Of a DNA stretch of 10,205 nt, positions 4,127 through 10,205 are shown piece by piece. A program made the position numbers and the translations under genes. Source of the stretch: a virus (taxonomy: Duplodnaviria > Heunggongvirae > Uroviricota > Caudoviricetes); the IMG/VR virus record IMGVR_UViG_2724679140_000003, positions 1 through 10,205 of that record; one strand, 5' to 3'. How positions within the stretch are numbered: the stretch's first letter is position 1; every line of letters begins with the position of its first letter. A model generated the notes under the pieces. That model worked only from the letters and a program-made list of their open reading frames with translations, ran no database searches and was not told the origin of the DNA.

Positions 4127-4681
4127 TTATTTTAAGGAAAGCAACTGCTCTACGGTCATATTTTTAATTGCGCTCCGGTTTACAAGAGTCCAGCCTTGTT
4201 TCTTCAGATAAAACTGGAAGGTATCCAGGGTGCAGACCATTGCGCCGTCAGGAACGGTTTCAGTGAATTTGATATTGCCGTGTTCGTCGAGACGGATAAC
4301 CAGGGTGCGTCCGTCCCCGTGAATCATTTTGTCGGGAGACGGGGCGTTATTCTGGCGCAGTTCTGCTTCCATGCGGTCGAACTCAGCAATGTATGCCTCT
4401 TTAAATGCAGCGGCTTTTTTGCCAGTGAAGCCCATCACCAGGAAAACGAAGCCGTTTTTGGTGATTTGGTACATGGGGCGTTTTTCGCCTTTGGCGTCGG
4501 TGTAGGTAACGGGCGTAAAATTGCGCTCGTTAAAATCTTCAGAGCATTCTAGCGTTTCAATTTTGCGCAGAACGTCCTTGTGCATTTTGCGGAAGAACTC
4601 TGCAACCGCAACAGACGTAGTGACAGCGCGACCATTTTCGATGGTTACGTCAGGGTGAGAAAGGGTAGGGATAGTAGCCAT
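4127..4681 (-). CDS. Rha-family phage regulatory protein (184 aa short form; an in-frame upstream start at 4978 would give 283 aa)
   Basis: N-terminal motif RAVTTSVAVAEFFRKMHKDVLRKIE resembles the conserved core of the phage Rha domain (recalled pattern ...VAE.FGKRHDNVLRDI). ATG at 4681..4679 has SD AAGAGG about 8 nt upstream and puts the motif at the usual N-terminal position. The longer in-frame ORF from 4978 contains an intrinsic terminator, so the short form is preferred. Confidence 0.75.
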   Translation of the reverse strand: MATIPTLSHPDVTIENGRAVTTSVAVAEFFRKMHKDVLRKIETLECSEDFNERNFTPVTYTDAKGEKRPMYQITKNGFVFLVMGFTGKKAAAFKEAYIAEFDRMEAELRQNNAPSPDKMIHGDGRTLVIRLDEHGNIKFTETVPDGAMVCTLDTFQFYLKKQGWTLVNRSAIKNMTVEQLLSLK

Positions 4682-4847
4682 AATGGCAGCCTCTTGGTTA
4701 AGTATTAATAACTCACCACCAAGGTTTTCCACGACCATAAGGGTGGTGAGACGTACAGGGGTGGAAATACCGGTCAACCAAGAATCCGGCCAGCCTTGCA
4801 GCTGCCCTGCACGCCCCACCATAATCTGAATGTGGCTGTGCTTGACG

Positions 4848-4873
4848 CATAAAAAAACCGCCTGAGCGCGGTT
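4848..4873 (-). terminator. Intrinsic terminator (minus strand)
   Basis: Minus-strand RNA reads AACCGC-GCUCAG-GCGGUU followed by UUUUUAUG: a 6-bp stem, 6-nt loop and 7-U tract counting the stem Us. Lies between the DicF-like element and the Rha-like gene start. Confidence 0.5.
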
Positions 4874-5146
4874 ATGCGCTTGATTGAATTCCGGGTTTCC
4901 ACGCCCGGCACCCGTTTTATGAGGTGCAGGTGCACTATAATTCCACCCGTTCTGGTTTTCAATAGCTACATTCAACATTTTCTCTACCTTTCATCACCGA
5001 AGTGAACTTTGTTGATGCGGTGCCTGGTGCCTCCAGGTGACGTTAACCAGTTAACAATTAACGCCGGATAATCCACCCATAACACTGATGCTTTTAACTG
5101 TTCCGCGTGCGCTTAGCCGCATTCACCGCATCACAAAATTCACTTT

Positions 5147-7252: not shown

Positions 7253-8059
7253 ATGGCCGCATTACCATACATGCAACTGTACATAGCTGATTACCTGGCT
7301 GACACCATGCATTTGTCAGCAGAGGAGCATGGTGCGTATTTGTTGCTGATGTTCAATTACTGGCAAACAGGAAAGCCAATACCTAAAAACAGGCTGGCAA
7401 AAATTGCCCGTCTGACTAACGAGCGATGGGCTGATGTTGAACCATCCTTGCAGGAGTTTTTTTGCGATAACGGCGAGGAATGGGTGCATCTTCGGATTGA
7501 GGAAGATCTGGCATCAGTCAGGGAAAAATTAACCAAAAAATCAGCCGCAGGAAAAGCATCTGTTCAGGCCAGAAGAAGCAGAAAGGAAGCTGATGTTCAA
7601 ACAAAACAAGAGAGAAATTTAACAGGTGTTCAAACAGATGTTGAAGTGGTGTTTGAACATGATGTCAACACAAAGGCAACTAATAAAGATACAGATAAAG
7701 ATCTAAAAACAGATCCCCCCCTAAATCCCCCCCGGGGGAATCGAGGTGTCAAAAAGTTTGACCCTCTGGATATTGTTTTGCCGAACTGGATTTCTGTCTC
7801 GCTTTGGCGTGAGTGGGTTGAATTTCGCCAGGCATTGCGAAAACCGATTCGAACGGAGCAGGGCGCTAACGGGGCGATACGGGAACTGGAAAAATTCCGT
7901 CAGCAGGGTTTTACACCTGAGCAGGTGATTCGACACAGCATCGCCAATGAATACCAGGGCCTGTTCGCGCCGAAAGGTGTTCGGCCTGAGACGTTGCTCC
8001 GACAGGTTAACACCGTCTCGTTGCCGGACAGTGCGATCCCGCCTGGCTTCAGGGGGTAA
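7253..8059 (+). CDS. DUF1376 (YdaU-like) replication initiation protein, O-like (269 aa; alternative in-frame start at 7202)
   Basis: N-terminal MAALPYMQLYIADYLADTMHLSAEEHGAYLLLMFNYWQTGKPIP matches the conserved DUF1376 signature (YM.LYI.DYL.DT..LS.EEHGAYL.L). Followed immediately by a DnaC-like gene. ATG at 7253 has GGGG upstream. Confidence 0.85.
   Translation: MAALPYMQLYIADYLADTMHLSAEEHGAYLLLMFNYWQTGKPIPKNRLAKIARLTNERWADVEPSLQEFFCDNGEEWVHLRIEEDLASVREKLTKKSAAGKASVQARRSRKEADVQTKQERNLTGVQTDVEVVFEHDVNTKATNKDTDKDLKTDPPLNPPRGNRGVKKFDPLDIVLPNWISVSLWREWVEFRQALRKPIRTEQGANGAIRELEKFRQQGFTPEQVIRHSIANEYQGLFAPKGVRPETLLRQVNTVSLPDSAIPPGFRG
7556..7672. repeat. Iteron-like repeats inside the DUF1376 gene followed by an AT-rich stretch: candidate replication origin
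   Basis: Repeats of about 10 bp related to TGTTCAAACA at roughly 34-35 bp spacing: cTGTTCAggc (7560), gaTGTTCAAACA (7592), ggTGTTCAAACA (7626), inverted TGTTTGAACA (7651), gaTGTCAACA (7661), plus ggTGTCAAAAA further on at 7747. AT-rich 7672-7712 follows. Confidence 0.4.
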
Positions 8060-8065
8060 CAGACC

Positions 8066-8812
8066 ATGAAAAATATTGCGACAGGAGGCGTTCTGGAGCG
8101 TATCCGCAGACTGACCCCACCACATGTAACCGCCCCATTCAGAACGGTTGCGGAGTGGCGCGAGTGGCAACTTGCTGAAGGCCAGAAACGTAGTGAGGAG
8201 ATCAACCGCCTGAATCGCCAGTTGCGGGTGGAAAAAATTCTGAATCGCTCAGGCATCCAGCCGTTGCACCGTAAATGCTCGTTTGCGAATTACCAGGTGC
8301 AGAACGACGGCCAGCGATACGCGTTAAGCCAGGCGAAATCCATCGCCGATGAACTGATGACCGGGTGTACAAATTTTGCGTTCAGCGGAAAACCTGGTAC
8401 CGGGAAGAATCACTTAGCGGCAGCTATCGGGAATCGCCTGCTGAAAGACGGTCAGACAGTGATTGTGGTTACCGTGGCTGATGTTATGAGTGCTCTACAC
8501 GCCAGCTATGACGACGGGCAATCAGGCGAAAAATTTTTGCGGGAACTGTGCCAAGTGGATCTGCTGGTTCTTGATGAAATTGGCATTCAGCGCGAGACAA
8601 AAAACGAGCAGGTGGTGCTGCACCAGATTGTTGATCGCCGGACAGCGTCGATGTGCAGCGTGGGGATGCTGACAAACCTGAACTATGAGGCCATGAAAAC
8701 ATTGCTCGGCGAGAGGATTATAGATCGCATGACCATGAACGGCGGGCGATGGGTGAATTTTAATTGGGAGAGCTGGCGTCCGAATGTCGTCCAGCCAGGA
8801 ATTGCGAAGTGA
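8066..8812 (+). CDS. DnaC-like helicase loader / IstB-like AAA+ ATPase (YdaV-like replication protein, 248 aa)
   Basis: Walker [16 protein letters not shown] and Walker B LLVLDEIG. Recognisable DnaC-family layout. ATG at 8066 with GGGGG SD. Directly downstream of the O-like gene. Confidence 0.9.
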
Positions 8813-8834
8813 TTTTTACCGGGAGGAAATTTTA

Positions 8835-8984
8835 ATGGAAACCGTTTTTGATGCACTGAAAGCAATGGGAAAAGCCACGTCGGTAGAACTGGCTGCGCGA
8901 CTTGATATCAGTCGTGAAGAAGTGCTGAACGAGCTGTGGGAACTGAAAAAGGCTGGATTCGTTGATAAAAGCGCGTACACCTGA
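8835..8984 (+). CDS. Small winged-helix-like protein (49 aa)
   Basis: Strong SD GGGAGG 8 nt before ATG at 8835. Translation [49 protein letters not shown] looks like an HTH. Ends with TGA at 8982-8984, in frame with the next ORF. Confidence 0.6.
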
Positions 8985-8987
8985 CGT

Positions 8988-9596
8988 GTGGCCGATAACA
9001 ACGTTCAGCAGGAACATCCAGTGCCGGAAGAACAGCCGGAAGAAATCGCCACGGCAACAGTAGCGAAAATCTCAGAGTGCGATTTAACCGCGACGATTGA
9101 ACAACGCGGACCACAAACGGCGGATGAACTGGCTACGCTGTTCGGTACCACATCCCGCAAAGTTGCTTCAACGCTGGCAATGGCAATCAGCAAAGGACGC
9201 CTGATTCGCGTAAATCAGAACGGTAAATTTCGTTACTGCATGCCGGGCGGTAATTTACCAGCAGAGCCGAAAGCTGCATCGGTAGCGGAAACTGATGGTA
9301 AAGCCTTTCCTCAGCCTGCATGTGTTGTTTTACCAGTACAGGAGGCTGCAATACAGGAAGAAATTAAAACAGAAACTGTGGCGGACATTGTGCAGCCGCT
9401 GCCATCGTTCACTGAAACGCGAGCAGATGACCTGGTTTTACCATCGCTGCATATGGCAAACCGCGAACTGCGTCGGGCGAAAAGTCATGTCCAGAAGTGG
9501 GAGCGAGTCTGCGCCGCGCTGCGTGAGCTGAACAAGCACCAGGATATTGTCCGTCAGATTGTCGATTCCTCCAGTCGTATTGTGTCGGAAAAGTGA
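8988..9596 (+). CDS. Hypothetical protein (202 aa) with a second HTH-like segment; GTG start, or a readthrough extension of the preceding ORF
   Basis: Long ORF in the same frame as 8835..8984. First codon GTG at 8988 with no convincing SD. Contains [32 protein letters not shown], which resembles the HTH of the upstream 49-aa ORF. Confidence 0.7.
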
Positions 9597-9612
9597 TTCT
9601 AGGGGAGGGCTT

Positions 9613-10035
9613 ATGGCAAAAGTATTAACACAGGAAGAGCGAGAAAAAATTAAAGGGCAGATTGTTGATCTCGTACGCCAGAGCGAGCGAGAGACGTTAC
9701 GACAACTGGAAGCTAAAACAGGCGCGACAAGATATCTGATGAGTGTTCTCGCCAGAGAGCTTGTTGCCAGTGGCGATGTATATAACTCCGGCTACGGGTT
9801 ATTCCCGCCAGAACAGGCTCGTAAGGACTGGCAAAATGCCCGCAAAAAACTATCCAGGGCAAAGGTGAAGAAACCATCTGTGGTTGATCCTGACCTTATC
9901 TGGTCATTACCAGACGGAGAAATACGCCACTACGACAGGCGTCAGAACATAATCTGTAGCGAGTGCCGGAAGAGCGAAGTTATGCAGCGCGTGCTGGCGT
10001 TTTATCAGGGGAATTTTCAGGAGGTGGCACAGTGA
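9613..10035 (+). CDS. Hypothetical protein (140 aa from ATG 9613; the ORF track extends it to 9547)
   Basis: Strong SD GGGGAGGG immediately upstream of ATG 9613. Translation MAKVLTQEEREKIKGQIVDLVRQSERETLRQLEAKTGATRYLMSVLARELVASGDV... No family recognised. Confidence 0.7.
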   Translation: MAKVLTQEEREKIKGQIVDLVRQSERETLRQLEAKTGATRYLMSVLARELVASGDVYNSGYGLFPPEQARKDWQNARKKLSRAKVKKPSVVDPDLIWSLPDGEIRHYDRRQNIICSECRKSEVMQRVLAFYQGNFQEVAQ

Positions 10036-10205
10036 GCGGGATTGACTACCAGGATTTGGCTGCTGCCAACGCTTTCCTGGCGGATGTGCGGGCAGGGGCG
10101 TTTAACGACCTTTGCGCGGCGTTTGTCAGGCACGAAAAAATTGCAGGACTGGGTGATGGCGACACTGTGACGCTTAAGGAAGCGACTGATGCGCTGCTGC
10201 ACTGT
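10032..10205 (+). CDS. Hypothetical protein, 5' part only (runs off window)
   Basis: GTG at 10032 overlaps the preceding stop (GTGA). Open frame to the window end reading MSGIDYQDLAAANAFLADVRAGAFNDLCAAFVRHEKIAGLGDGDTVTLKEATDALLHC. No SD assessed; short and partial. Confidence 0.35.
   Translation, partial: MSGIDYQDLAAANAFLADVRAGAFNDLCAAFVRHEKIAGLGDGDTVTLKEATDALLHC

Follow-up and report, generated by a model that had tools for sequence, protein, structure and literature searches.

The window, by which we mean the whole stretch of 10,205 nucleotides that was analysed, covers the early region of a Rac-like lambdoid prophage, where bet, a RecE-family gene, a Rha-family gene, a cI-like repressor, ydaS, ydaT, ydaU and ydaV are found together with a DUF1627 gene and a DUF977 gene. 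We are concerned here with the DUF1627 gene. Direct reading of the sequence places it on the plus strand from 8835 to 9596, a frame of 762 nucleotides corresponding to 253 codons and a stop, with one further stop inside. A Shine–Dalgarno motif, GGGAGG (8821–8826), lies 8 nt 5′ of the ATG at 8835. Codons 1–49 (8835–8981) encode most of a first winged-helix domain and would give a product of 49 residues if the following TGA terminates translation. This premature TGA, codon 50 (8982–8984), is followed by a C (8985), and a single codon, CGT (8985–8987), separates it from a GTG (8988–8990) that belongs to the same frame, as 8982 minus 8835 is 147, or 49 times 3. The rest of the gene, codons 51–253 with the natural TGA stop at 9594–9596 (8985–9596), is open and intact. 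The original prediction had described two open reading frames in one frame on either side of a TGA-C, and its positions for the ATG, the TGA, the C and the GTG, as well as the frame relation, were all correct. Upstream, the gene is preceded by ydaV (8066–8812, plus strand), which codes for a DnaC-like helicase loader, a replication module being found 5′ of the gene in its relatives too; downstream it is followed by a gene of the DUF977 family (9613–10035, plus strand), the synteny of which is conserved. The order ydaU-ydaV (or DnaT/lambda-P), DUF1627, DUF977 was indeed found in the window and in all the loci fetched.

The window agrees in length and sequence with contig LRBX01000036.1 of atEc, a mouse commensal described as an ‘atypical E. 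coli’ (PMC5482719), and very probably is this contig. The segment also sits in IGC_EcoliInv_1.1, an evolved K-12 ‘invader’ (mouse G2), within a complete prophage of the lambda type that is integrated at ttcA. A phage named KingRac has been described as acquired in the mouse gut, making particles and lysogenizing new hosts (PMC6731689); the ttcA prophage fits this description, and KingRac would thus carry the TGA allele. Mouse strains of two laboratories have an almost identical prophage segment. In the stretch compared base by base with the chromosome of IGC_EcoliInv_1.1, NZ_CP054665.1 (7200–10205), the only difference is at 8747, in ydaV, with C in the window and A in the other sequence; the match of the whole window extends over 10,206 bases there as compared with 10,205, implying one more indel of one base upstream of 7200. 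Further upstream, Rfam identified on the minus strand a C4 antisense RNA (4739–4826, 76.7 bits) and the Hfq-binding small RNA isrK (4851–4927, 69.2 bits), both of which fall inside the 5′ part of the annotated 283-residue coding sequence of the Rha family (4127–4978, minus strand). The annotated start of this coding sequence is probably too far upstream, and the real Rha gene may begin near an internal MATIPTLSHP..., after a regulatory RNA module of the P1 c4/isrK type.

We consider it highly probable that the two same-frame open reading frames are one prophage gene of the YdaW/DUF1627 family, cut by the change of a tryptophan codon, TGG at position 50, into TGA. On an identical sequence RefSeq/PGAP annotates 8835–9596 as one coding sequence, a ‘DUF1627 domain-containing protein’, classified as a pseudogene with an ‘internal stop’. 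Pfam DUF1627 (PF07789) matches residues 88–242 of the repaired protein (nt 9096–9560) with 323.5 bits for a cut-off of 28.1, and the same match corresponds to residues 37–191 of the downstream reading frame. In random sequence, 202 open codons right after a stop have a chance of about (61/64)^202, or about 6 × 10−5, and both parts of the reading frame are collinear with single proteins of 253 residues; it follows from this low probability and this collinearity that the 202-codon open frame is not there by chance. A member of the family would be expected to be a single polypeptide of about 220–270 residues, with an N-terminal winged helix collinear with the DUF1627 region; the DNA of the window is collinear with 253-residue members from end to end, but, its codon 50 being a stop, does not as such encode the single polypeptide.

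Taken mechanically, the 202-residue open reading frame begins with the GTG at 8988, as does the NCBI protein MEZ3452680.1. While the original prediction took this GTG as the start of a next reading frame, it codes for Val52 of the intact protein, in an R-V-A-D motif that is internal in intact homologues, and is no gene start. The accompanying remark that it has no clear Shine–Dalgarno sequence holds, as no motif of the AGGA/GGAG type was found in the 18 nt 5′ of this GTG. A weak candidate for an internal start is present somewhat downstream (9010–9023, plus strand), where AGGAA (9010–9014) precedes, with a spacing of 6 nt, an in-frame GTG (9021–9023, Val63); it is at this second GTG that the ENA/Logan gene callers begin the downstream part, which then has 191 residues.

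Alignment with homologues, the check that had been proposed with the original prediction, gave one continuous reading frame with a sense codon, TGG, at this position, and thus sustained the first of the two readings offered there, namely one gene for about 253 residues with a nonsense mutation inside it, in line with the PGAP annotation. One homologue, 93% identical, carries the annotation of a single 253-residue protein, and the DNA alignment has TGG where the window has TGA. More generally, homologues of 93–99.3% DNA identity are uninterrupted frames of 253 codons with TGG at codon 50, and each of the five intact alleles compared codon by codon has this TGG and no internal stop. The nearest intact allele, that of APEC 102026, differs at 5 of 762 nt, one of them being the G/A of codon 50. 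To count the alleles, 30-mers were built so that any megablast seed covers the variable base, and used with 5,426 complete E. coli genomes. These complete genomes contain roughly 5,300 copies of the gene. With TGG, the 30-mer of one flanking background matched at 872 places (859 genomes) and that of the other at 783 (736 genomes), 1,655 in total; the TGA 30-mer was found at one place, in IGC_EcoliInv_1.1, so that the stop accounts for 1 of 1,656 matches. In IMG/VR, where a degenerate pattern accepting TGG, TGA, TAG or TAA retrieved at least 120 copies, 120 of the 120 copies among the matches listed had TGG. A sense codon one substitution away in close relatives, as seen in all five intact alleles and in these IMG/VR copies, is to be expected of a pseudogene made by a nonsense mutation.

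The family to which this gene belongs is small, with 185 clusters at 50% identity. Full-length members (220–267 residues) align end to end with the 253-residue query down to 22% identity, the top-listed full-length relatives having about 239–296 residues. Among 39 diverse members the only invariant columns are L34 and W50, so that the mutated codon is that of the family's most conserved residue. An AlphaFold model of the intact protein (mean pLDDT 80.8, and 94–98 over residues 1–50) predicts a first winged-helix domain at residues 1–53, with helices at 4–11, 16–23 and 27–40 and a wing strand at 43–46, the last wing strand, residues 49–52, holding W50. A second winged-helix domain is predicted at residues 79–137 (9069–9245), and long C-terminal helices, the part of DUF1627 that is most conserved in the alignment, at residues 205–252 (9447–9590). 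A disordered linker would separate the two winged helices, and a second disordered stretch would precede the C-terminal helices. The boundary of the first domain is modelled at residues 53–55, which puts the stop just inside this domain and not at its boundary; judging from the model and the alignment, the 49-residue product is devoid of the last wing strand and of the invariant tryptophan.

It had been proposed, too, that the downstream frame contains a second helix-turn-helix segment similar to the first. This is right at the level of the fold, as both segments are modelled as three helices followed by two strands, and wrong at the level of the sequence: BLASTP of the N-terminal 52 residues against the 202-residue part returned nothing, and we dropped the idea of an internal repeat by sequence, the likeness being structural only. 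Pfam yields weak, sub-threshold winged helix-turn-helix matches to both the N-terminal and the second segment, together with a weak FeoC-like match at residues 84–130. The best Foldseek matches in the PDB are generic proteins with winged helices in tandem, ScpB and the C-terminal domains of SelB among them; at the level of a predicted structure, they would point to winged helices binding nucleic acids or proteins, and to nothing more specific. No established function was found in the literature on DUF1627 and ydaW. A single hint at a function was found, from a screen of a gene-overexpression library, in which ydaW came up as a ‘blocker’ hit for the retron-Sen2 toxin RcaT (bioRxiv 10.1101/2020.06.22.160242); another paper places the family commonly near the PasA/PasC sRNA genes.

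How widespread is the TGA allele, and how old? The exact 49-residue product is on record for about 30 contigs (NCBI, JGI, ENA, Logan), and the copies with the complete gene, which we name haplotype A, are all identical to the window over 762 nt. Carriers of the allele include SRR9310223, SRR30808296, SRR29686455 and JGI 3300005460. One further ‘49-aa’ product was dropped as evidence, as its contig ends there. The allele is present in two mosaic prophage backgrounds, with a junction at about 7700–7830, inside ydaU: they are wholly different upstream of this junction and differ by two SNPs (8114, 8194) from 7830 to 10205. The second type of prophage, seen in six of the loci, has a different 5′ part of ydaU, a different cro-like gene and a different repressor. 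This junction is clean lambdoid mosaicism that carried the TGA allele along, and the existence of two backgrounds means that the allele has survived at least one recombination event. It circulates in mouse-associated E. coli, and is too young for divergence to have followed the mutation; this stop allele is both rare and shallow.

Loss of the same codon occurred elsewhere in the family. In a second haplotype, haplotype B, which diverges by about 6.5% and goes with DnaT/lambda-P replication genes, codon 50 (nt 148–150 of the gene) is likewise a stop. It is TGA in four loci (L018, L020, L022, L023) and TAG in two others (L019, L021), with an intact TGG allele 3–4 nt away. Its TGA and TAG 30-mers were found at no place in the 5,426 complete E. 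coli genomes. There were therefore at least three independent stop events at codon 50 (A-TGA, B-TGA, B-TAG), the search for such alleles being biased to products of about 50 residues, since it started from one cluster of short proteins made at 90% identity. As a control we may take W35, the only other tryptophan of the first domain: it is a stop on four haplotypes, TGA in L144 and L146 and TAG in L145 and L147, the rest of the frame being intact. Codon 50 is therefore no special hotspot of nonsense mutations, since W35 was hit at least four times and many other lesions exist in the family. Indeed, about 14 of the 120 IMG/VR copies among the matches listed, a sample that is unbiased for codon 50, are disrupted elsewhere, by TAG at E18 (three copies), by four frameshifts and by deletions (L044 group, L072), the K-12 type included.

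Clustered protein representatives include deletion/fusion products, namely a fusion of the N-terminal winged helix with the DUF977 region (P0204) and one of ydaU with the C-terminus (P0165). Where DUF1627 is intact in the closest relatives (L004 and L005), the annotation puts an internal stop in the DUF977 neighbour (1779–2198 in both, equivalent to 9613–10035 of the window). Which gene of the DUF1627–DUF977 block is broken differs from lineage to lineage. The simplest reading of this pattern is that of a frequently decaying accessory gene which has been very deeply sampled, tryptophan codons being one transition away from two stops.

The ancestral ACC-TGG created the sequence CCTGG at 8980–8984, the known site for cytosine-5 methylation by Dcm, and the mutation to TGA destroys it. 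Deamination at this site was considered as a cause, and rejected: acting on the bottom strand, it would be expected from the sequence to give TAG (G8983), as in L019 and L021, and not the TGA (G8984) of the window.

Some known systems may be compared with this gene. In K-12, ydaW of the Rac prophage belongs to the same family, has 92.8% DNA identity to the gene of the window over the shared 5′ part, and shares with it the position after ydaU-ydaV, the N-terminal winged helix with the DUF1627 region, and the state of a damaged copy; however, a deletion takes away its C-terminus, whereas in the window the whole frame of 253 codons is present, and codon 50 alone is a stop. Prophage pseudogenes labelled ‘internal stop’ by PGAP have in common with it a change of a single base from the sense codon of their relatives and the rarity of the allele, and nothing essential differs, save that the codon hit here happens to be that of the family's invariant tryptophan. 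Belinky et al. (2021; PMC7918605) describe in-frame stops of bacterial genes as retained under purifying selection, and propose that they can lower expression rather than kill the gene. As presented there, these stops likewise lie in otherwise intact reading frames and persist in the population, but the allele of the window shows 0 differences in 762 nt among haplotype A copies, and with zero divergence purifying selection after the stop cannot be shown. We conclude that the lesion is an ordinary one, of the already annotated pseudogene type, with no programmed recoding signal.

Some features weigh against a simple loss of the gene. The 202 downstream codons bear no further lesion and the carrier phage, which would be KingRac, is viable, which also fits an allele that is tolerated or partly functional; the TGA allele persists, in two backgrounds and in many samples; and stops arose at codon 50 at least three times, the W35 control having the same pattern. 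One might imagine a functional split, where reinitiation at GTG 8988, 3 nt downstream of the stop, or at GTG 9021 would supply two polypeptides that keep most of the function. The first GTG is but one codon past the stop, the second has AGGAA 6 nt before it and is the start picked by gene callers, the modelled domain boundary at residues 53–55 is close to the stop, the allele has lasted on two backgrounds as well as in an active phage, and all the independent stops at codon 50 leave the downstream frame intact. Yet we find such a split improbable. The intact homologues are single reading frames, none of them being naturally built as two genes, and of the two possible restarts GTG 8988 is without a Shine–Dalgarno sequence and GTG 9021 has only the weak AGGAA. 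The 49-residue piece is without the wing strand that bears the invariant tryptophan, and the stop alleles, with their 0 differences within haplotype A, are all too young to show selection. Moreover, W35, which lies 17 codons before the GTG, has stops that are equally recurrent, so that the survival of such alleles can be explained without a restart codon nearby.

A related proposal would have the stop itself useful, the repeated nonsense mutations at W35 and W50 reflecting selection to cut YdaW down to the few per cent allowed by readthrough, or to uncouple its two halves. We give this little credence; if true, the down-tuning of YdaW could, for example, lower prophage induction or its cost.

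The second alternative of the original prediction was that of programmed readthrough, the TGA-C being selected in order to fix a ratio between the 49-residue and the 253-residue proteins. In its favour, the allele persists in a viable phage, decoding by Trp-tRNA would restore the invariant tryptophan, and UGA-C, in the work of Poole, Brown and Tate in 1995, is reportedly the weakest termination context in E. coli. The remark that this context is leaky is correct as a matter of textbook knowledge, and the UGA-C is present, but here it would concern incidental readthrough at a low level, and not a programmed one. Programmed recoding of UGA is known from selenocysteine insertion, and leaky stops from viruses, as in the A1 readthrough protein of phage Q-beta. 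What the window shares with these cases is a UGA inside a longer reading frame; it differs from them in having neither a SECIS element nor a conserved stop, and in that the long form is the ancestral protein, not an extension. Indeed, the stop is nearly absent elsewhere (1 against 1,655 of the 30-mer matches, and none of the 120 IMG/VR copies among the matches listed), TGG is found in the closest allele, at a distance of 5 nt, and in a sister lineage codon 50 reads TAG. As for an RNA signal, no Rfam family, SECIS or other, reached its gathering threshold in the region of the stop, and the 85 nt 3′ of the stop fold no better than their shuffled versions (z = −0.86). The 49-residue product, in turn, would be an incomplete domain according to the model. 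Since there is no SECIS, the fold is unremarkable and the stop is not conserved, neither programmed readthrough nor selenocysteine recoding is supported; the former is very improbable, and the latter was discarded, no SECIS being found by Rfam 3′ of the UGA and the ancestral codon being that of Trp, not of Cys or Sec. Finally, an error of sequencing or assembly hiding a true TGG has hardly any probability: assemblies err most commonly by a single base, and the TGA occurs in only 1 of 5,426 complete genomes, but the same TGA was recovered on at least 10 independently assembled contigs (NCBI, JGI, ENA, Logan), in strains of two unrelated laboratories (atEc LRBX01000036.1; IGC_EcoliInv_1.1) and in two flanking backgrounds.

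Returning to a single gene broken by a nonsense mutation, we may picture its consequences as follows. A single G-to-A transition at 8984 changed the codon of the invariant Trp50, TGG, into TGA. Most ribosomes should then stop after 49 residues and release an incomplete winged-helix domain. At UGA codons, Trp-tRNA competes with RF2, and a reporter in strain BW25113 displayed about 2% readthrough at 37 °C and about 4% at 25 °C (PMC10570021). Incidental misreading of this kind would insert the ancestral residue, and because that residue is tryptophan, any leak from UGA to Trp would recreate a little of the wild-type protein. Reinitiation at GTG 8988 or GTG 9021 could, in addition, yield some C-terminal protein. 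Judged from its sequence and from the modelled structure, the TGA allele would amount to a pseudogene, or at most to a strong hypomorph.

The case is mildly unusual in three respects: the residue hit is an invariant tryptophan that misreading of UGA would restore, the allele persists in a transmissible phage, and nonsense mutations recur at tryptophan codons. It reveals no new mechanism, while making the TGA allele a handy natural reporter of UGA readthrough, since the lost codon is that of Trp and the new stop is UGA, so that a leak would restore the native protein. There is also a lesson for annotation: the ‘49-aa HTH protein’ and the ‘202/191-aa DUF1627 protein’ of the databases (for instance MEZ3452679.1 / MEZ3452680.1) are the halves of one broken gene, and should not be treated as separate families. 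As for the biology of the phage, the KingRac-type prophage of the mouse-gut evolution experiments appears to carry the broken gene and is yet active, from which it would seem that particle formation and lysogeny can do without YdaW at its full level. If KingRac does carry the TGA allele, neither of the two needs it at that level.
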